From Bacilli bacterium (GTDB lineage Bacteria > Bacillota_I > Bacilli_A > RF39 > UBA660), in contig JAFTYN010000143.1 in assembly GCA_017461465.1 (NCBI GenBank), positions 1-33,624 on the forward strand: a stretch of DNA of 33,624 nt, given 5' to 3'. This document shows, in pieces, positions 7,376 through 23,378 of this stretch; the stretch's first letter is position 1; each line of letters starts with the position of its first letter. Position numbers and translations under genes: made by a program. The notes beneath the pieces are model-generated. The model saw nothing but the letters and a program-made list of their open reading frames with translations. It had not been told where the DNA came from and searched no databases.

Positions 7376-8476
7376 ATGATAAATAGTTTAGATATGAAAG
7401 AAGTATCAAAAATATCATATAATGCAGATACAAGAAAAGAAGTTTTTAGATTTGATATTATATATCGTGATGGAAGAACTGAAAGTAAAGAAATACCGCT
7501 TTATGTATTTGACTTAGAAGCAAATAAAAAAGTAGTAAATAGTGACGCTATTAATATAGCTAATTTTGTAACGGAATCTTCAAAAAAAATAAATGCTGCT
7601 AATGATAAAAAAGTAGAACCTACAAAAGAAGAAAATAAAAAAGAAGATGTTCCTTCTAATACTGAAGAAACTATAGAGCAAATGGCTGTAACTCCAGTAA
7701 AAACAGAAGTTAAAGTTACTCAACCATTCTCAGAAAGAAAATTAGATACTCTAAATAATATATTAAAAGCAAAAGTAAGAGCGGAATTATCAGAAGAAGA
7801 ACTTCAAAGCGAATTACAAAAACTTTCTCGTCAGTATGATGTTTCAAGTAAAAGTATGGAAGTTTTATATAAAAAAGCTCAGTTAGAGGTTCGAAAAGAT
7901 AATGCAGAAGCAATAGCTAGAAAAAAATTAACTGGCAGAAAAATTCCTTCTAAATTTCAAGCAAGAAAGAATGAAAAAATAGAAGTAACTGATATAAGAA
8001 AACAATCTTTATATAATAGAAAAAGTTATATAGAAAGATCAAAAGATTTAGTTATTCCAGAATTTAAAGAAGATTGGATAAGATATATAAATGAAAATCA
8101 TCGTCAGCCAGTACATATTTATGGTGCTGTTGACATCATGGTTATGATTAATAATGGTACTAATATAAGAGAAATACATAAGTACTTAGATAATCTTCAT
8201 AATTCTGCAACTAACGCTAGTATGGCGCTTGATTTATTAGAAAAATATTCACCATATGGAAAAGAATTATCTAAAAAATGTCGTAAATATAGAATGTCTA
8301 GACCAGAAAGATTAAAGAATTTTGTTTTAGATAAAACTTCATTATTTGTGGAAAAAGTAGATGAAAAAGATTCTAATCAAGCAATAGAAGAATTAAAAGC
8401 ATTAAGATCAAGTCTTAAAGAAATGGAAGAAATACAGTTAACAACATTAACAGAAGAAAATAGCAAGACTATGTAA
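7376..8476 (+). CDS. Hypothetical protein, 366 aa, Lys/Glu-rich with predicted coiled-coil stretches
   Basis: Long ORF with AGGTGG 7 nt upstream of the ATG, bracketed by terminators on both sides. I recognise no family motif. Confidence 0.7.
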   Translation: MINSLDMKEVSKISYNADTRKEVFRFDIIYRDGRTESKEIPLYVFDLEANKKVVNSDAINIANFVTESSKKINAANDKKVEPTKEENKKEDVPSNTEETIEQMAVTPVKTEVKVTQPFSERKLDTLNNILKAKVRAELSEEELQSELQKLSRQYDVSSKSMEVLYKKAQLEVRKDNAEAIARKKLTGRKIPSKFQARKNEKIEVTDIRKQSLYNRKSYIERSKDLVIPEFKEDWIRYINENHRQPVHIYGAVDIMVMINNGTNIREIHKYLDNLHNSATNASMALDLLEKYSPYGKELSKKCRKYRMSRPERLKNFVLDKTSLFVEKVDEKDSNQAIEELKALRSSLKEMEEIQLTTLTEENSKTM

Positions 8477-8902: not shown

Positions 8903-8968
8903 AATTATCTTTTTTTTACTATTTTATGGTATTATGTAGTTAATGGTTAATAGATGTGAGGGATGTAC

Positions 8969-9907
8969 ATGGAACTAATAACAATAATAGTACCTATCTA
9001 TAATGTAAAACCATATTTATCAAGATGTATAGAAAGTATCATTAATCAAGATTATAAAAAGTTAGAAATTATACTTGTTGATGATGGTTCTAATGATGGT
9101 TCAAGTGAACTATGTGATGAATATGCAAAAAAAGATAAAAGAATAAAAGTAATTCATCAAAAAAATAGCGGAATAAGTATTGCAAGAAATGTCGCTACTG
9201 ATTTAGCAAAAGGCAAATATATAGCCTATGTAGATAGTGATGATTATATAGAATTAGATTACATAAGCTATTTATATAAATTAATTAAAGACAACAAAGC
9301 AGATATTTCAGCATGCGCGCATAATAAACATCGTTATATAGAAGCTGTTTATGAAAAAGATGAATTATATCCTGCACTATTAACTAGTAAAATTGCATTT
9401 TCTTCATGGTCCAAATTAGTAAAGACTTCAGTTATGAGAGATAACAATGTATATTTTCCGGATAATGAAATATATGAAGATCAAAAATGGATATATAACC
9501 TACTTAATTACACTAATAGGGTAGCAGTAGGGTCATTATCTAAATACCATTATACATATAGACCTAATAGTATATTTAATACTAATACAACTAAAAATAA
9601 AGAGTCTTTAGTTCAAAGATTATGTGAAATGCATGAATTTATAAAAGAAAATCACTCAGAATATTCCGATTTATCTTATATACGTTATTTAAGAGAACTA
9701 ACATATAATTTTTTATCATTCGCAAGAGTAAAAGAATTAAAAGAGTTAAGAAAAAAAATGTATAAACTAATAAAAAAAGATAGAAATAAAATAATACTAA
9801 AAAAAGAAGTTAACTTATTTCTAAGACTAGAGTTATTAGTAAGCTATTTTGGATGGCATATATTTAGTCTTTATAATTATATTTTATTTCCTGTATATAA
9901 AGGATAA
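8969..9907 (+). CDS. Family 2 (GT-A) glycosyltransferase
   Basis: IIVPIYNVKPYLSRCIESIINQDY...LVDDGSNDGS...YVDSDDYI are the canonical GT2 N-terminal motifs, including DxD. Confidence 0.85.
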   Translation: MELITIIVPIYNVKPYLSRCIESIINQDYKKLEIILVDDGSNDGSSELCDEYAKKDKRIKVIHQKNSGISIARNVATDLAKGKYIAYVDSDDYIELDYISYLYKLIKDNKADISACAHNKHRYIEAVYEKDELYPALLTSKIAFSSWSKLVKTSVMRDNNVYFPDNEIYEDQKWIYNLLNYTNRVAVGSLSKYHYTYRPNSIFNTNTTKNKESLVQRLCEMHEFIKENHSEYSDLSYIRYLRELTYNFLSFARVKELKELRKKMYKLIKKDRNKIILKKEVNLFLRLELLVSYFGWHIFSLYNYILFPVYKG

Positions 9908-9909
9908 TT

Positions 9910-10851
9910 ATGACAGAAAAAATAAGTGTAATTATATCAGTATATAATACCAAAAAGTATTTAAAAAAGTGTTTAGAAAGTATTATAAAAGATGATTATA
10001 AAGATTTAGAAATATTAGTAATAGATGATCATTCAGAAGAAAGTTCTTTTGATTTAATAGAAAAAATAAATGATAAGCGAATAAAATATATATATAAAGA
10101 AAAAAATGTTGGACTTTCAATAATAAAACAATATGGTTTAGATATTGCGAAAGGTAAATATGTTATTTTTATTGATAGTGATGATTATATTGAAAAAAAT
10201 TCAATAAAAAGAATGTATGATAATATAAAAAAATACAAAGCTGATATATCAATATGTGACATGGTATATGTATATCCTAAAAAAAAGTATAAATTTACTA
10301 AAAATAAAGTAGTAAAATTATTTAATAGAAAAGAAGCTATGAAAGCATTATATTTAGATAGAGGTATAACTTTCTCTTTATCTAATAAATTGTTTAAAAA
10401 AGAATTATTTAAATGTTTATATATAAATGATATAAAACTAGCAGAGGATAATAACATTATTTATAAGGTTTTTGATAGGGTTAATAAAGCTGTTTATGAT
10501 CCATTTGGAGGATATTATTATGTTCAAAGAAAAGATAGTGTTTCTCATCAATCAAAGATAGATAATTATAGAATTAAAAGTAATAAGAAAGCTATTTCTT
10601 TTCTAGAAAAAAGATACCGAGATACTTATTGTTATGGAATTAATATTTATATATTATCTTTAATGGGGGCGTACTCTAGAACAAGTGATAATAAATATTA
10701 TGAAGAAATAAAGAATTATAAAAAAAGTATGAAGTTTAGTGCTTTATCTTTTGAAAGAAAAATTCAATTTATTATACTAATAATTAATAAAAAACTATAT
10801 TTAAAAGTAATGAATAAATATTATAGCTATGTAAATAAAAGATATAATTAA
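9910..10851 (+). CDS. Family 2 (GT-A) glycosyltransferase, paralogue of the preceding gene
   Basis: ISVIISVYNTKKYLKKCLESIIKDDY...VIDDHSEE...FIDSDDYI. The start lies 2 nt after the upstream stop. Confidence 0.85.
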   Translation: MTEKISVIISVYNTKKYLKKCLESIIKDDYKDLEILVIDDHSEESSFDLIEKINDKRIKYIYKEKNVGLSIIKQYGLDIAKGKYVIFIDSDDYIEKNSIKRMYDNIKKYKADISICDMVYVYPKKKYKFTKNKVVKLFNRKEAMKALYLDRGITFSLSNKLFKKELFKCLYINDIKLAEDNNIIYKVFDRVNKAVYDPFGGYYYVQRKDSVSHQSKIDNYRIKSNKKAISFLEKRYRDTYCYGINIYILSLMGAYSRTSDNKYYEEIKNYKKSMKFSALSFERKIQFIILIINKKLYLKVMNKYYSYVNKRYN

Positions 10852-17791: not shown

Positions 17792-18674
17792 TATAAACGA
17801 AGTATTAAAAAAATATTCAATAAAGCCTATAAAATATCAAAAAAAGGGTAATACTTTATTATTAGAAACAAAAGAAAATAAATATGTATATAAAGAAAAC
17901 TCGAATAATATAGATATTTATAGTTATTTAAATTCAAGAAGTTTTAATTATTATCCTAAAGTAATTACAGATAAATTAGACTCTTTTGAAATAACAAAAT
18001 ATGAAGAAGAAATAAACATGCCTAAAGAACAAAAGATTTTAGATATGATTTCATTAGTTAGTCTTCTTCATTTTAAAACAAGTTATTTTAAAGAGATAGA
18101 TAATAATGATTATCTAACATTATATGAAGATTTAAACAATAATATAGCGTATTTATATAGTTATTATAGTGATTTAATATCTTTAATTGAATCAAAAATA
18201 TTTATGTCACCATCAGAATATTTACTTGCTAGAAATATCTCAAAAGTATTAATTAGACTAGATATATTAAGTGAGGAAATAAATCTGTGGTTTAATCTTG
18301 TTAAAAACAAAGAAAAATTAAGACAGGTTATATTACATAATAATTTAGATTTAAGTCATTATATAAAAAATACAAATGAATTTTTAATAAGCTGGAATAA
18401 ATCCAAAATAGGGATGCCAATATTTGATTTATATAAATTTTATATAAGAAATACTGAAGTAGATTTAATAGATATATTAGATATATATGAAAGAAATTAT
18501 CCTCTTTTAATAGAGGAAAAAGAATTGTTATTTATTTTAGTTAAAATGCCCTCTATTATAGTACTTGATAAAGATGAATACACAAATACTACTAATGTAA
18601 GAAAGTTTATAGATTACATAGATAAAACAGAAAAACTTATTTTACCAAATAGTCATGATTATAGACCAAACTAA
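17784..18674 (+). CDS. ysxE: CotS/YsxE-family spore-coat protein (kinase-like fold, catalytic motifs apparently degenerate)
   Basis: The N-terminal pattern VLKKYSIKPIKYQKKGNTLLLETKENKYVYKE...YSYLNSRSFNYYPKVI is typical of the CotS family. ILHNNLDLSH and ISWNKSKIGMPIFDLYKF stand where HGDxxxxN and IDFD are expected. It overlaps the spoVID stop by 8 nt. Confidence 0.6.
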   Translation: MNNINEVLKKYSIKPIKYQKKGNTLLLETKENKYVYKENSNNIDIYSYLNSRSFNYYPKVITDKLDSFEITKYEEEINMPKEQKILDMISLVSLLHFKTSYFKEIDNNDYLTLYEDLNNNIAYLYSYYSDLISLIESKIFMSPSEYLLARNISKVLIRLDILSEEINLWFNLVKNKEKLRQVILHNNLDLSHYIKNTNEFLISWNKSKIGMPIFDLYKFYIRNTEVDLIDILDIYERNYPLLIEEKELLFILVKMPSIIVLDKDEYTNTTNVRKFIDYIDKTEKLILPNSHDYRPN

Positions 18675-18821
18675 TATAAGCCAGAAAATAAAACACATAA
18701 AAACATTAAATCTTGTAATTATAAAAAGAGTTAATATTAATTGATAAAATAATAATATTCCAAAAATAAACATAATTATAAGCCACTTACTACCATGAAA
18801 AAAATTTCTATTATTACACAT
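18642..18821 (-). CDS. Candidate unannotated small hydrophobic protein (59 aa, two predicted TM helices)
   Basis: My own translation of the minus strand reads MCNNRNFFHGSKWLIIMFIFGILLFYQLILTLFIITRFNVFMCFIFWLILVWSIIMTIW. AGGTGA lies 4 nt upstream of the ATG. It is one codon too short for the ORF track, and its 3' end overlaps the ysxE 3' end by about 33 nt. Confidence 0.3.
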   Translation of the reverse strand: MCNNRNFFHGSKWLIIMFIFGILLFYQLILTLFIITRFNVFMCFIFWLILVWSIIMTIW

Positions 18822-18865: not shown

Positions 18866-18898
18866 AAACAATAGATATTTCTATTGTTTTTGCTTTTT
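18866..18898 (+). terminator. Rho-independent terminator with no adjacent + strand CDS
   Basis: AAACAATAGA (18866-18875) pairs with TCTATTGTTT (18880-18889), a 10-bp stem, loop TATT, then TTGCTTTTT. It lies about 190 nt after the ysxE stop. Confidence 0.65.
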
Positions 18899-18941
18899 AA
18901 ATGGTTTATAATATACTATAGAGTAAGAATAGGTGATATAG

Positions 18942-21900
18942 ATGTTAAATAAATTAAAATTAAATCAAAAAGGGCTAGCAATATCAGGTATTTTATATTC
19001 AATACTTGTTTTATTTCTTATACTATTATTTAGTATTCTAGCACTTTTAGCATCAAGTAAATACACTTTTGATAAATTAAAAAATGATGTAATAGATAAA
19101 TTAAGTGAAAATACTGAAACAGAAACTTTATCTAGTTGTTTTACTTTTGATTCATCAACAGGAACAATTCTAGATTATAACGCAGCATCTTCTTCATGTC
19201 CTAAAGCTGTTGTTATACCAGAAACAATAGATGATGTAGCAGTTAAATATATAGGTTCAAAAGCATTTAAGAGTAAAGGCTTAACTAGTGTAGATTTTAG
19301 TCAAGCTATATATTTAAAAGAAATAAAAGGTGGATCATCAGATACTGGTGCTTTCGCATCTAATAGCATTACTAAAGTAAAATTTGGTACACTTTTAAAT
19401 TTTACAACTTTTGGTGGCTATGATTTTTATAATAATCAAATTGCTGGAACTTTAGATTTAAGGGGGTTACCTAATATTAGTAAACTTCCTACTAAAATTT
19501 TTGCAAGTAATAAAATAACAGGAATTGATTTTTCAAATAATAAAAAATTAACAGAAATAGGAAGTGGAGCTTTCTATCAAAATAAATTAGCAGGAGAGTT
19601 AGATTTGACTGCTTTAAAAAAATTAAAAACAATCGGAGAAGGAGCTTTTTCCGCTAGTTACTCTTCTGGATACAATGCTCTTACTTCAGTTAAATTAGAT
19701 GGATTAACTAACTTAACAACAATTAGTAAAACAGCATTTTATAATAATGCTCTAACTGATTTTGATTTTACAAAACTTCCTTCATTAACTACTATTGGTT
19801 CTTTTGCATTTTCTCAAAATAACTTAACTAAAGCAGATTTTAGCAATAATGCTAATTTAACAACAATTAGTGAAGAAGCATTTTATGATAATGCTATAAA
19901 AACATTAACATTCAGAAATAATCTTAAATTAACAAGTATAGGAGAGCAAGCATTTTATTCAAATGCCATTGAAGGGGTATTGGATTTAACAGGTGCTCCT
20001 AATGTATCTTTATCAGCTGCATCTATATTTACTTATAATCAAATAACAGGTGTCAAATATAATGGTACTATATTAGGACAACAAATATTTGCAAGTAATA
20101 ATTTTACATCTATAGATTTTAATTTAATGCCAAATTTAACTGATATATATGCTAGAGCATTTTTATCCAATAATTCTCTAACAACAGTTAATTTAGAAGT
20201 ATTAAAAAGATTAAAAACAATAGGTTCAGGAGCTTTTGGGCACTGTTCACTTACTTCTATAAAGTTTCCTAATACTCTTACTTCAATAGAATCTTATGCA
20301 TTTTATAGTAATGCAATAGAGGGTGTATTAGATTTTTCTAATATAGAAGGGTCATTAACTATTGGTACTTTAAGTTTTTATGATAATTTATTAACTAATG
20401 TCAATTTACCAAGTTCATATACCTTAAATGGTGGAGCTTTTAATAAGAATAATTTTTCAGCTGAAAGAGCTCACTATACCCAAAAGAAAACTCGAACTTT
20501 AGAAGATGGAACTACACATGAATATATAGAATTAGTTAGTTATGCTAGTAATAACGCTGATGAAGTAACAGTTCCAGCAGAAGTAGAATCCATTGGTGAT
20601 TATGCTTACCATGGTGGTGGGATTAAAAAAATAAATTTACATAGTGAAATATTTAAGATTGGAAATTACGCTATAGGTGGTAATGACTTAGGAGATGTAA
20701 TAGATTTATCTGTTTCTCCTAAAATAGAAACTATAGGTACATATGCATTTCAAGGAACTTATAGTTTAGGTTCTTCTGTTTCAAATAGTTCCACAGGTAC
20801 ATCAAGTAATTCTATGAGTTATTATAATCATAGTACAAGTTTTTCAACTTCTATTAGTAATACTTCTGGTTCAGAAGGAAAACAATTAATATTAACAGGT
20901 TTAAATAAATTAGAATCTATTGGAGAACGTGCATTTTATTCAAAAGGAATTTCAACTATAACAGGTTGGGAAGATTTAACTGCGTTAGAAACAATTGGAC
21001 AATATGCTTTCGCTTCTAATTATGTAGCAACTTTAGATTTTTCAGTATTAGCAAGCCTAACATCTATTGGAGACTATGCATTTCAAAATAATACTAAGTT
21101 AACTTCTGTTAATTTTAATGGTGCAACTTCACTAACAAGTATTGGATCATATGCATTTTCTGGTTGTACAGCCTTATCAACAGTAGATTTTACAAATCTA
21201 CCAGCTTTAACTACAATTAACAGTTATGCATTTCAAAATGCTCCTATTACTTCAGATATAGATTTTGCTAATAGTGCGAATTTAAGTTCACTATCAAATT
21301 ATGCATTTTATGGAAATAGGTGTGCGAGAACTATCAATCTTGCCAATACGGCTTTAACTTCAATATCAAGTTATGCATTTCATACAGGAACAACGGGAAA
21401 AACGACTACAGCTAAAATAATTCTTCCTACAAATGCTCAAGTGATTAATGGTCGTGCATTTTATGGGCTTAATGCTAATGAAATAATTTGGTCATCTAAC
21501 ATTAGAACTATAAGTGATTATGCATTTTATTACAATGGTTTAACAGAATTAACTATTCCATCAACAGTTACTACAATAGGAAATTACGCATTCATGAGTA
21601 ATGACTTAGTAACATTAGTTATTCCAAATAATGTTACTAGTATAGCAACGCAAGCTTTTGCAAATAATCAAATAACAAATTTAACATTACCTTCAACAAG
21701 TGTTAGCTATGGTGCAAATGTTTTTGAAAATAATAAGTTGACTACTTTGGATTTATCAGCATCTGGTTTAACTGTGGTAGCATCAGGAATGTTCAAAAAT
21801 AATTTGATTACTAACCTTACTTTAGGAAGTCGCATTACTAATATTAAAACTGAAGCATTTTATGGTAATAGAATGTCTGAAATTACAATTCCTGTAAATG

Positions 21901-22910
21901 TAACGACTATTGGAAATAATGCATTTAAACAAACTGCCTCATATCCTTGGGAAAATGTAATCATTGAATACAATGATACAATAGTAGAGCAACGTTTCGT
22001 TGCTAATTGGAATAAAATTGGTTGGCCAATAGAATTGATGCCTGGTCTTGATGAAATAGAAACTGTTTTATTGACAAACGAACCTAACAATTTTGAATTT
22101 AATGAATTTTTATATGTTGTCAAAGCAGAAACTCCTGGGCAATACAAATTAGAAGTATGGGGAGCACAGGGAGGAACTTATAGTAGTTATAAAGGTGGAA
22201 AAGGTGGATATTCTACAGGAATTTTAAATATTACTGAACCTACAGATATATATATTTACGTAGGTGGACAACCTAGTACTAATAGTACTAGCAGTACGGT
22301 AACTGAAGGTGGATATAATGGTGGAGGAGCAGGAGCAAATAGAATTTACTCTGGTGTATCTACATATGGTCAAGGTGGCGGAGGCGCTACTGATATTAGA
22401 ATCGGTTCAACTTCACTATATGCACGAGTAATTGTTGCCGGTGGTGGTGGTGGCTCTGCTTCTGATTCATCAGAAACTACTAAATTTGGAGGCGGTATTA
22501 CAAGTGGTAGTCCAAGTTCATCTTACACTGCTAACCAAGTTAAAGCAGGTACAGGAGGAAGTTTCGGTCAAGGAGCTGCAGTAACTTCAAGTGGTTTAAA
22601 TTATAAATATAGTTCTGGCGGCGGCGGTGGTGGCTGGTACGGCGGTGGTGCTGCTACTGAGTATACAGATAATGACGAGAATTATAGAGGTTATAATGGC
22701 GGTGGTTCAGGTTGGGTATATACAGAAGAAAACTTTAGTACATGGCAATCAGGAAACGCTACAGATGCTGCTAATTGGTTGTTACCAACAAAATATTATT
22801 TAACTTCAGCTACTACTATTCCAGGTAATGAAGATTTCACATCACCAACTGGCGAAACTGAAACAGGTCATTCTGGTAATGGTTATGCAAGAATAACTTA
22901 TATAGGTTAA
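18942..22910 (+). CDS. Giant surface protein: N-terminal pilin-like/signal-anchor helix, about 35 BspA-type leucine-rich repeats, C-terminal ALK/LTK-like glycine-rich domain
   Basis: 1322-aa ORF with AGGTGA 5 nt before the ATG.
- N-terminus: LNQKGLAISGILYSILVLFLILLFSILALLA.
- Repeats of the form I-G-x-x-A-F-x-x-N-x-L-T-x-[VI]-x-[FL] recur through most of the protein.
- C-terminus: YKLEVWGAQGG...GGYNGGGAG...GGGGATDIRIG...RVIVAGGGGGS...SSGGGGGGWYGGG...YNGGGSGW.
- There is no LPXTG motif. Confidence 0.9.
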   Translation: MLNKLKLNQKGLAISGILYSILVLFLILLFSILALLASSKYTFDKLKNDVIDKLSENTETETLSSCFTFDSSTGTILDYNAASSSCPKAVVIPETIDDVAVKYIGSKAFKSKGLTSVDFSQAIYLKEIKGGSSDTGAFASNSITKVKFGTLLNFTTFGGYDFYNNQIAGTLDLRGLPNISKLPTKIFASNKITGIDFSNNKKLTEIGSGAFYQNKLAGELDLTALKKLKTIGEGAFSASYSSGYNALTSVKLDGLTNLTTISKTAFYNNALTDFDFTKLPSLTTIGSFAFSQNNLTKADFSNNANLTTISEEAFYDNAIKTLTFRNNLKLTSIGEQAFYSNAIEGVLDLTGAPNVSLSAASIFTYNQITGVKYNGTILGQQIFASNNFTSIDFNLMPNLTDIYARAFLSNNSLTTVNLEVLKRLKTIGSGAFGHCSLTSIKFPNTLTSIESYAFYSNAIEGVLDFSNIEGSLTIGTLSFYDNLLTNVNLPSSYTLNGGAFNKNNFSAERAHYTQKKTRTLEDGTTHEYIELVSYASNNADEVTVPAEVESIGDYAYHGGGIKKINLHSEIFKIGNYAIGGNDLGDVIDLSVSPKIETIGTYAFQGTYSLGSSVSNSSTGTSSNSMSYYNHSTSFSTSISNTSGSEGKQLILTGLNKLESIGERAFYSKGISTITGWEDLTALETIGQYAFASNYVATLDFSVLASLTSIGDYAFQNNTKLTSVNFNGATSLTSIGSYAFSGCTALSTVDFTNLPALTTINSYAFQNAPITSDIDFANSANLSSLSNYAFYGNRCARTINLANTALTSISSYAFHTGTTGKTTTAKIILPTNAQVINGRAFYGLNANEIIWSSNIRTISDYAFYYNGLTELTIPSTVTTIGNYAFMSNDLVTLVIPNNVTSIATQAFANNQITNLTLPSTSVSYGANVFENNKLTTLDLSASGLTVVASGMFKNNLITNLTLGSRITNIKTEAFYGNRMSEITIPVNVTTIGNNAFKQTASYPWENVIIEYNDTIVEQRFVANWNKIGWPIELMPGLDEIETVLLTNEPNNFEFNEFLYVVKAETPGQYKLEVWGAQGGTYSSYKGGKGGYSTGILNITEPTDIYIYVGGQPSTNSTSSTVTEGGYNGGGAGANRIYSGVSTYGQGGGGATDIRIGSTSLYARVIVAGGGGGSASDSSETTKFGGGITSGSPSSSYTANQVKAGTGGSFGQGAAVTSSGLNYKYSSGGGGGGWYGGGAATEYTDNDENYRGYNGGGSGWVYTEENFSTWQSGNATDAANWLLPTKYYLTSATTIPGNEDFTSPTGETETGHSGNGYARITYIG
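19240..21960 (+). repeat. Tandem array of degenerate units of about 66-75 nt encoding BspA-type LRRs (inside the 18942..22910 CDS)
   Basis: My manual count gives about 35 IGxxAF-type units. AFYSNAIEGVLDL occurs twice at the protein level, but the two DNA copies have diverged. Confidence 0.8.
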
Positions 22911-22916
22911 TTAATA

Positions 22917-22950
22917 AAAAGTATATAATTTAGTTTATATACTTTTTTTA
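22917..22950 (+). terminator. Rho-independent terminator after the giant gene
   Basis: AAAAGTATATA (22917-22927) pairs with TATATACTTTT (22936-22946), then a T-run. Confidence 0.8.
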
Positions 22951-22991
22951 TTATTTAGTATATAATTAATTTAGAAAGTAGGGAGTTATTT

Positions 22992-23378
22992 ATGCCAAAA
23001 TTTATATGTGATAAATGTAAAAATGAATATACTGGAAATTACTGTCCAACATGTGGTGATAAAAGAACTAAAAAAGATGAAGAAAGAATAACAGATGGTG
23101 AAATATTAGCTGATGTACTTAGTGATGCATCGAAAACAGTAAGTAAAAGTGTTAAAAAGATTAGTAAGAGAGTATTAGTTGGCTCTATATTCTTATTAGT
23201 ATCTTTTGGTCTTTTATTTATGGGAGCATACTATAAATCTAAAGAAAATGATGACTATAAAAATTTGACTTATAAATATGTTGTTAATTCTAATTATTTT
23301 AGTGGTTATATGAGTCTATCAGGTGCATTCTTAATAAGTTCTATTTTAATTTTTGTGTCAGATAAAAAGAAAGACTAA
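22992..23378 (+). CDS. Zinc-ribbon membrane protein (128 aa)
   Basis: N-terminal CDKC...CPTC (CxxC-x(10)-CxxC) zinc ribbon, followed by two hydrophobic helices. Confidence 0.7.
   Translation: MPKFICDKCKNEYTGNYCPTCGDKRTKKDEERITDGEILADVLSDASKTVSKSVKKISKRVLVGSIFLLVSFGLLFMGAYYKSKENDDYKNLTYKYVVNSNYFSGYMSLSGAFLISSILIFVSDKKKD

Follow-up and report, generated by a model that had tools for sequence, protein, structure and literature searches.

The window analysed here is a 33,624-nt stretch of contig JAFTYN010000143.1 from an assembly of a Bacilli bacterium, with a G+C content of about 25%. On its plus strand, an open reading frame (ORF) at 18942-22910 encodes a protein of 1322 amino acids (aa), exactly as the original prediction described it. 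We call it the LRR-GRD protein: it joins leucine-rich repeats (LRRs) of the BspA/TpLRR class to a C-terminal glycine-rich domain (GRD) of the ALK/LTK family, behind an N-terminal segment whose sequence pattern resembles that of a prepilin. We lean, with modest confidence, towards the view that it is a modular adhesin displayed on the surface of an uncultured gut or rumen bacterium, a low-G+C member of the Bacillota (Bacilli-like). The gene is built up as follows:

18942-22910, plus strand: coding sequence from the ORF list, with an ATG start, 1322 aa and a stop codon
18942-18974, plus strand: residues 1-11 (MLNKLKLNQKG), a short basic leader ending in Gly, with a putative prepilin-peptidase-type cleavage site after G11 (alignment A1)
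18975-19115, plus strand: residues 12-58, a conserved hydrophobic segment (LAISGILYSILVLFLILLFSILALLASS) running into an amphipathic helix; it is alpha-1-like but has Gly in place of the pilin Glu at +5
19131-20759, plus strand: residues 64-606, first BspA/TpLRR block of about 20 repeats, with an N-terminal cap containing conserved Cys66 and Cys86 (Pfam, AlphaFold, repeat model)
20760-20891, plus strand: residues 607-650, Ser/Thr/Tyr-rich insert that separates the LRR blocks; all orthologues have it here, with little conservation of its sequence
20892-21941, plus strand: residues 651-1000, second LRR block of about 15 repeats, with the best LRR_5 stretch at 877-998, plus LRR_8 (repeat model)
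21942-22079, plus strand: residues 1001-1046, Trp-rich cap or linker (YPWENV...RF..NW..IGWP; alignment A1)
22080-22907, plus strand: residues 1047-1322, GRD (ALK_LTK_GRD, PF12810), the C-terminal module (Pfam, AlphaFold, Foldseek)

Both domain assignments passed the hidden Markov model (HMM) searches that had been proposed for them. LRR_5 (PF13306) scored 389.3 bits against a cut-off of 27.7 (E 3.8e-118) in 8 multi-repeat stretches, with weaker Pfam matches to LRR_8 and LRR_EndoS, and PF12810 scored 165.7 bits against a cut-off of 24.5 (E 2.4e-48) over residues 1064-1321, covering profile positions 6-243 of 243. By eye the array divides into 35 units of about 22-25 aa, of which 20 precede and 15 follow the insert; a single-repeat HMM made from 12 clean units marks 30 segments, some of them weak, so that the earlier estimate of about 35 is a fair one. 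These tandem units, of the IGxxAFxxNxLTxVxF type, would build a solenoid: the AlphaFold model of residues 64-330, in which the predicted local distance difference test score (pLDDT) mostly exceeds 90, has one short strand roughly every 24 residues. The Ser/Thr-rich break described in the original prediction falls at residues ~607-650, in the same place in all orthologues, and is possibly a hinge or a glycosylated loop. In the linker that follows the second block, W1003, R1018, F1019, W1023, G1027, P1029 and P1034 are invariant (alignment A1). NCBIfam matches of the protein were all below threshold, and membership of the HupY/LrrG equivalog was rejected (NF047961, 232 bits against an equivalog cut-off of 1250). 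Neither Pfam nor NCBIfam matched an LPXTG, choline-binding, SLH or LysM family in the protein, in line with the earlier remark that it has no such anchor.

The GRD is modelled with high confidence by AlphaFold (residues 1030-1322; pLDDT 95.2, predicted template-modelling score 0.93). DSSP assigns it about 14 strands and long, confident Gly-rich stretches that are neither helix nor strand, which is consistent with polyglycine-II helices arranged in a lattice against a TNF-like beta-sandwich. The structural comparison suggested in the original prediction also came out as foreseen: Foldseek against the PDB gave 21 matches at E <= 0.001, all to the GRD/TG region of ALK or LTK, including invertebrate ALK (E 1.3e-8 to 1.6e-5, probability 1.00, identity 14-18%), and the next match had an E-value of ~0.9. 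By sequence, phmmer found no match to the GRD in the PDB, and a profile containing LRR columns from full-length orthologues (alignment A2) matched only LRR structures there, which has no bearing on the GRD. The ALK and LTK structures (PDB codes 7LRZ, 7N00, 7NWZ, 7NX0 and 7LIR) are of the same Pfam family and are the only solved fold relatives; their GRD is extracellular and binds ligand, and that of the LRR-GRD protein would be extracellular as well. Only the domain is shared: the LRR-GRD protein lacks EGF-like, MAM and LDLa domains, and no ALKAL-type ligand is expected. Orthology to ALK or LTK was rejected, as Pfam finds only LRR families and the GRD, with no kinase or other receptor domain, and the GRD is the C-terminal end of the protein.

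GRDs are common in phage tail proteins too. Among predicted viral structures, Foldseek found 39 matches at E <= 0.001, the best of which is a metagenomic siphovirus protein (56% identity, template-modelling score (TM-score) 0.89, root-mean-square deviation 1.7 Å); the rest include “virion structural” and “tail collar” proteins of cyanophages, a minor tail protein of a mycobacteriophage and proteins of giant viruses (BFVD). Three PHROG families of unknown function match the GRD at E 1e-24 to 1e-31, and tblastn against GenBank phage records gave no match at 1e-5; the link to phages therefore comes from PHROGs, BFVD and metagenomic proteins. The GRDs closest in sequence (60-66% identity) lie in proteins of 300-510 aa with PF12810 alone, some of them named as Caudoviricetes proteins (“glycine rich protein”), and in one canonical prepilin. 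Two phage-type GRD genes lie 14 nt 3' of genes for ~720-aa tail fibres (Phage_fiber_2, XkdV_N), in structural modules that also contain baseplate-type or peptidoglycan-binding domains. The cryo-electron microscopy structure of the Pam3 tail fibre gp24 has a distal TNF-like plus glycine-rich domain as its proposed receptor-binding tip, which its authors compare with C. elegans ALK (PMC9608196); Pam3 gp24 itself was not among our Foldseek PDB matches. The domain family, the sequence identity to metagenomic phage proteins and the TM-score are thus what the LRR-GRD protein shares with phage GRD proteins. The latter, however, are virion parts of 300-500 aa, trimeric via N-terminal helices in the case of gp24, whereas the LRR-GRD protein is a chromosomal, syntenic host protein of 1322 aa that has a membrane helix and a stalk of LRRs. 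By analogy only, the polyglycine adhesin gp38 of phage S16 is a further parallel.

The combination of LRR_5 and GRD occurs in only eleven database proteins (P0001-P0011; 97% to 35% identity, full-length), which come from metagenomic contigs and metagenome-assembled genomes (MAGs) labelled Bacillota or Bacilli bacterium; all other homologue matches carry LRRs alone. No characterised protein of this architecture turned up among the homologues, all of which are unnamed or “hypothetical”, and cluster look-ups of them returned only “hypothetical protein [Bacilli bacterium]”; this agrees with the earlier statement that no function is established for the architecture. Identity to the orthologues P0002 and P0003 falls along the protein:

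N-terminus: 100% identity
LRR block 1: 95-96% identity
LRR block 2: 75% identity
Linker: 54-61% identity
GRD: 51% identity

To the GRDs of the other orthologues that of the window is 36-45% identical, and the N-terminal segment is fully conserved (100% identity) in orthologues with no more than 38-51% identity in the GRD. The 97%-identical P0001 excepted, the GRD is nearer to phage-associated and prepilin-fused GRDs (60-66%) than to those of its own orthologues (36-51%). A constant base with a variable, exchangeable C-terminal end is the pattern expected of a specificity module, and this mosaic of identities suggests a specificity tip that can be swapped. The evidence for movement of the GRD between tail genes of phages and surface proteins of the host appears to be new.

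At the other end of the protein, residues ~6-47 are the best-conserved stretch of the orthologue alignment (KLNxKG[LMT]AISGILYSILVLFLxLLFxILxLLASxKYTFDKLK). They hold a single hydrophobic segment, and AlphaFold predicts one helix for residues 10-55, as the original prediction had it; the helix ends at residue 55, with a low-confidence linker at 52-59 and the LRR cap from ~64. A class III signal consists of a leader ending in Gly or Ala and 20-25 hydrophobic residues, with Glu at +5 (Glu5) “often, but not always” present (PMC10191384). The LRR-GRD protein has this layout, with a leader ending in Gly followed by a hydrophobic, helix-forming segment.

A word-index homologue search with the first 105 residues found three fragments only. 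A profile of the module with 58 positions, searched exhaustively against 1.84 billion representative proteins, matched 1139 protein clusters at E <= 0.001 and 141 at E <= 1e-10. They are from uncultured Bacilli, and the module always stands at the N-terminus (residues 1-55) of proteins that range from 44 to 1966 aa in length. Among 143 family representatives the leader is mostly 5-8 aa long, with Gly at -1 in all and Lys at -2 in 129 (90%). Position +1 is Phe in 105, Met in 27 and Leu in 4, and position +5 is Gly in 90, Ser in 46 and Glu in none; Ala+2 and Ser+4 are typical, Tyr+8 is found in 143/143 and Phe+14 in 138/143. The N_methyl models matched 0 of 106 module-bearing proteins; as a positive control, they recognised the canonical prepilin P0126 (PF07963 E 2.2e-8, TIGR02532 E 4.7e-6). 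The family is absent from Pfam and NCBIfam and appears to be new.

A Pfam scan of the same 106 module-bearing proteins showed what the module carries:

ALK_LTK_GRD: 33/106, the commonest cargo
Bact_surface_Ig-like: 14/106
Laminin_G_3 (ConA-like lectin domain): 8/106
DUF6273: 7/106
DUF285: 3/106
F5/8 type C: 3/106
LRR_5: 2/106
Carbohydrate-binding modules: single cases

All of these cargo domains are extracellular or binding-type modules. The canonical prepilin P0126 (KGFTLVE) carries a C-terminal GRD 65% identical to that of the window, and the two kinds of N-terminus are therefore interchangeable carriers of the same cargo. Its gene (L012:2942-4426) lies between the glycolysis genes gap and pgk on a spo0A-bearing Bacillota contig, with no pilus genes near it in that locus. 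Two to five or more tandem GRDs, with or without the module, are found in P0124, P0125, P0271, P0276, P0340 and P0377 (the last 1966 aa long), and GRDs are also joined to LamG, to F5/8-C and to a large HPAFTFG-motif domain without a Pfam match.

In other MAGs the module heads 428-445-aa proteins encoded between a sigH-like gene and secE-nusG, a 253-aa protein after infB, and a 556-aa repeat protein. On two related MAG contigs (L009 and L010) canonical KGFTLIE prepilin genes lie 2-6 kb from module-bearing genes. These are pairs of genes for ~145-153-aa prepilins (KGFTLIELLAVI...) directly after valS (L009:16116-17015, L010:7590-8643); in B. subtilis the prepilin peptidase gene comC lies near valS.

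Upstream of the LRR-GRD gene are tyrS, lon, an unassigned 258-aa ORF, a gene for a LysM protein with a weak SpoVID match and one for a weakly YsxE-like protein, and downstream are a 128-aa ORF, sigK on the minus strand and gltX. Farther upstream lie rny, nusA, infB, two family-2 glycosyltransferase genes and deoC. The original prediction placed the gene between sporulation genes. The sigK assignment is solid (307 bits, above cut-off), but the spoVID-like and ysxE-like matches are below their curated cut-offs (24.5 against 169.9 bits and 84.8 against 263.6 bits). Nor are these genes immediate neighbours: a 59-aa minus-strand ORF separates the LRR-GRD gene from the ysxE-like gene, and the 128-aa ORF separates it from sigK. 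These ORFs, and the flanking signals of the gene, of which those 5' of the coding sequence were read by eye, are as follows:

18642-18821, minus strand: very hydrophobic 59-aa ORF (MCNNRNFFHGSKWLIIMFIFGILLF...) between the ysxE-like gene and the LRR-GRD gene, with its own AGGTGA-type ribosome-binding site
18884-18912, plus strand: promoter-like TTGTTT-17 nt-TATAAT, with the -10 box at 18907-18912
18931-18936, plus strand: ribosome-binding site AGGTGA, 5 nt 5' of the ATG
22912-22953, plus strand: AT-rich hairpin followed by a T-run, a plausible intrinsic terminator (RNA folding, shuffles)
22992-23378, plus strand: 128-aa ORF with an N-terminal CxxC...CxxC zinc ribbon and C-terminal transmembrane segments

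The 59-aa ORF converges on the ysxE-like gene, whose 3' end it overlaps. Its conservation at the same position in seven related loci (L001, L002, L003, L005, L006, L017 and L018; 55-100% aa identity) makes it a probable gene for a small membrane protein. The 128-aa ORF is convergent with sigK, whose end it overlaps by 4 nt, and stands beside sigK in L001-L003, L005 and L006 (50-98% identity); it therefore travels with sigK and not with the LRR-GRD gene.

The TATAAT that had been described as the gene's own promoter-like element is present, but a promoter function is unproven, as a consensus scan of this AT-rich stretch gave no more sigma-70-like matches than chance would (24 found against 31.3 expected); the site at 18884-18912 is not in the list from that scan, and its -35 box matches at 3/6 positions. 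What had been called a strong terminator folds beyond expectation (-11.9 kcal/mol, z = -3.93, with 0/200 shuffles folding as well) and has its T-run, but is almost pure A-U and was missed by a G+C-based terminator scan. Just 5' of the promoter-like site an inverted repeat, CAATAGA-TATT-TCTATTG, followed by TTTTTGCTTTTT (18868-18899, plus strand), may be the terminator of the upstream operon. The G+C content of 22001-23000 reaches 0.367, largely owing to glycine codons, and was therefore not counted as evidence of transfer. Over the LRR region (19001-22000) GC skew is ~0 (0.05, 0.11, -0.03) and AT skew ~0.02-0.04, against ~0.25-0.35 and 0.13-0.2 in the flanking genes; the Thr/Ser/Asn-rich composition of the repeats or a different gene history may lie behind this drop.

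The order tyrS - lon - hypothetical gene - spoVID-like - ysxE-like - LRR-GRD gene is kept in orthologue loci at 66% and at 36-39% identity, with Rnf genes inserted before sigK in the more distant ones (L001, L006). Directly 5' of the LRR-GRD orthologue, the clade at 36-39% identity has a 283-aa LRR_5-only paralogue with the same N-terminal module (L001:7045-7896, L003, L005), which is not present in the window. In a still more distant relative (L017:8170-10698, L018), whose flanking proteins are 29-51% identical, the slot after the ysxE-like gene holds a PASTA/polysaccharide-deacetylase gene and a gene for a protein of 398 aa that combines the N-terminal module with an Ig-like domain and a GRD. 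Because this slot protein has no LRRs, the LRR array seems to be an expansion confined to one clade, starting from an older protein that consisted of the N-terminal module and the GRD. Elsewhere in the window, a 366-aa ORF after infB (7376-8476, plus strand) has no NCBIfam match, and is followed by a 120-aa ORF and the two adjacent family-2 glycosyltransferase genes (8963-10851, plus strand); in L009 the slot after infB is held by a protein with the N-terminal module.

What the analysis shows directly is the identity of the domains, the fold, the pattern of conservation, the distribution of the family and the mosaic divergence; export topology, leader cleavage, surface location and a binding function are inferred. 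In the adhesin that we favour, the N-terminal segment would be a class-III-type (prepilin-like) signal, whose basic 11-residue leader stays in the cytoplasm. The ~27-residue hydrophobic helix would insert via Sec, with the C-terminus outside; the positive charges are all in the leader. A prepilin peptidase would probably then remove the leader after Gly11, leaving the helix to hold the protein in the membrane. Alternatively the Glu5-less helix, like those of filament-capping minor pilins, could give the protein the tip position in a short type IV filament. The ~35 BspA-type LRRs, in two blocks with a Ser/Thr-rich hinge, would form an elongated solenoid that carries the GRD outward and may itself bind ligands. 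The GRD, with the fold of the ALK/LTK ligand-binding domain and from the family of phage tail-fibre-associated proteins, would be the specificity module, a cassette swapped among lineages as well as with phage genes. The likeliest kind of ligand is a glycan or surface structure of the host or of other microbes.

Several observations weigh against this picture. The N-terminus matches none of PF07963, TIGR02532 and IPR012902 (N_methyl) at E <= 10, and has Gly at +5 where the Glu5 of type IV pilins would be. Its 11-aa leader is longer than the family norm, and its Leu at +1 is a rare variant in the family. The AlphaFold model shows no globular pilin head (a beta-sheet packed on alpha-1C) after the helix, and neither the window nor any fetched locus of the orthologue clade contains a prepilin peptidase or filament-assembly gene. 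An uncleaved signal-anchor explains surface display equally well, and TM-scores to ALK and LTK are only 0.38-0.45, which amounts to partial fold similarity. The pilin-like N-terminus of the original prediction is accordingly supported at the level of sequence pattern, and by the canonical prepilin with its 65%-identical GRD, but not by the N_methyl models, Glu5 or a pilin head. The pattern favours processing of the leader; the lack of a head domain and of machinery genes makes a full pilin role less likely.

The protein could instead be a genuine building block of type IV filaments, a modular minor pilin without Glu5 that is processed by a prepilin peptidase and incorporated first, at the tip of a type IV pilus or Com-like pseudopilus. 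The filament would push the LRR-GRD portion through the cell wall. We think this more specific form of the favoured reading rather unlikely. The leader, Gly-1 and +1 pattern fits the determinants of prepilin peptidases, and type IV filament tip complexes are capped by a subunit without Glu5 (PMC10191384). Modular pilins onto which adhesin or lectin modules have been grafted are widespread, with a predicted place at the tip (PMC8179133), a canonical prepilin carries the same GRD, and canonical prepilin genes are close to module-bearing genes in L009 and L010. Besides the absent N_methyl match, the lack of assembly genes nearby and of a head with which to dock onto other minor pilins, however, more than 1100 clusters with varied cargo, several per genome, are many for tip subunits, and the ~1260-aa ectodomain is far larger than known modular pilins. 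Considerably less probable is that the protein is sporulation-specific, with sigma-E or sigma-K driving its synthesis in the mother cell, and is displayed on, or inserted around, the developing spore. The gene order from lon through the spoVID-like and ysxE-like genes to the gene and on to sigK is indeed kept at 36-66% identity, and the same slot in the distant relative holds a shorter protein with the N-terminal module and GRD. But other module proteins are encoded beside sigH/secE-nusG, beside infB or valS, or within glycolysis genes; Rnf genes stand between the gene and sigK in L001 and L006, and the conserved convergent small ORF between the gene and the ysxE-like gene. The promoter scan identified no sporulation-type promoter, and no sporulation protein family of Pfam or NCBIfam matched the LRR-GRD protein.

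The order lonA...spoVID-ysxE-valS of B. subtilis we take to be an old conserved Bacillota gene order, and adjacency to sporulation genes can therefore be inherited. We regard the neighbourhood as conserved gene order, and found nothing that ties the function of the protein to spores. Spore-coat proteins are assembled from the mother-cell cytoplasm and, to our knowledge, lack membrane-insertion signals; a coat protein was rejected, as an export signal is present and the gene context of the family is inconsistent with it. Of the surface or spore-surface adhesin proposed originally, the surface part fits the export signal and the binding-type modules, whereas the spore part has only gene order behind it. 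Least probable to us is a secreted or released effector with a cleaved Sec signal, its GRD acting as a toxin or lysis-associated factor, an idea raised by Noel et al. for GRD proteins encoded beside the holin in phiCD119-type C. difficile prophages (PMC2843621). No catalytic or toxin family matched the protein in Pfam, NCBIfam or PADLOC, and there is no conserved A-x-A site across the family. The phage GRD genes found here directly follow tail-fibre genes, and the solved tail fibre has its GRD as the distal tip. The ~27-residue hydrophobic segment is conserved above the rest of the protein, which would be unexpected for a discarded signal peptide; a cleaved Sec signal peptide was rejected, as the segment is both too long and too conserved. 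PADLOC defence-system models matched neither the LRR-GRD protein nor three neighbouring proteins.

Among known systems, the surface adhesin that we favour has close parallels, besides the ALK/LTK and phage GRDs, in modular pilins, BspA-type adhesins and a protein subfamily of Trichomonas. It resembles the modular pilins PilB and PilC of S. sanguinis in its carrier helix, short Gly-ended leader and bulky binding module, and GspK/PilK-type tip pseudopilins in the absence of Glu5, which is typical of a filament-capping subunit. Lectin-type cargo is common to modular pilins and the family of the N-terminal module. In contrast to modular pilins it has no IPR012902/N_methyl match, no pilin head and no assembly genes nearby. 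By the definition of a modular pilin as an IPR012902 module plus an extra domain (Raynaud et al. 2021), the extra binding module is present and the signature is unmatched; the protein may work like a modular pilin without being a member by that definition. With BspA/TpLRR adhesins (Tannerella BspA, streptococcal HupY/LrrG, PDB 4FS7-type) it shares the LRR_5 repeat family, but those have a Sec signal with LPXTG, lipoprotein or type IX secretion system anchors, and are without a GRD. Trichomonas vaginalis has 12 TvBspA-GRD proteins (subfamily #168) that combine BspA LRRs with a GRD, and sharing of the GRD with Clostridium (C. difficile) prophages was already reported by Noel et al. 2010 (PMC2843621). 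These too have BspA/TpLRR and PF12810 in one protein, predicted to be surface or secreted in a mucosal microbe, with no function shown. Compared by published description only, they differ in being eukaryotic and much shorter, with the GRD N-terminal and followed by 16-20 LRRs, and in having a signal peptide or C-terminal transmembrane segment where the LRR-GRD protein has an N-terminal pilin-like helix. Given this precedent, the pairing of LRRs and GRD is not unprecedented.

Each domain type of the LRR-GRD protein is thus known, and the pairing of LRRs with a GRD has its precedent, in reverse order, in Trichomonas; the frequent fusion of the N-terminal module to GRDs appears to be new. We tentatively suggest, as a possibility that is on balance doubtful, that the module represents an unrecognised class of Glu5-less prepilin-like carriers, by which uncultured gut Bacilli display a large repertoire of exchangeable binding modules. 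The putative class would have the consensus xNKG followed by F/M/L-A-I-S-G/S-I-L-Y-S-I-L-x-L-F..., and the GRD may be foremost among the modules displayed. Such a display system may be a new branch of type IV filament subunits, or else a peptidase-processed membrane stalk.

If the reading is right, at least 1100 clusters from uncultured gut and rumen Bacilli share a signal that prepilin models miss, and surveys of pilins and modular pilins based on IPR012902 undercount them. The ALK/LTK-type GRD, so far studied mainly as a cytokine-binding domain of vertebrates, would be a common cassette moving among phage tail proteins, canonical pilins and host surface proteins, and there would be a bacterial setting in which to ask what the GRD fold binds and how its specificity loops evolve. 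A bacterium that displays a phage-type tip domain would also raise questions of cell-cell recognition, competition for receptors and gene exchange between phage and host. Should the LRR-GRD protein be only a membrane-anchored LRR adhesin, it would be an ordinary, very large member of a common class; if the new carrier class is real, bacteria and phages would draw on a shared pool of receptor-binding cassettes, of which the protein described here would be the largest LRR-extended member.

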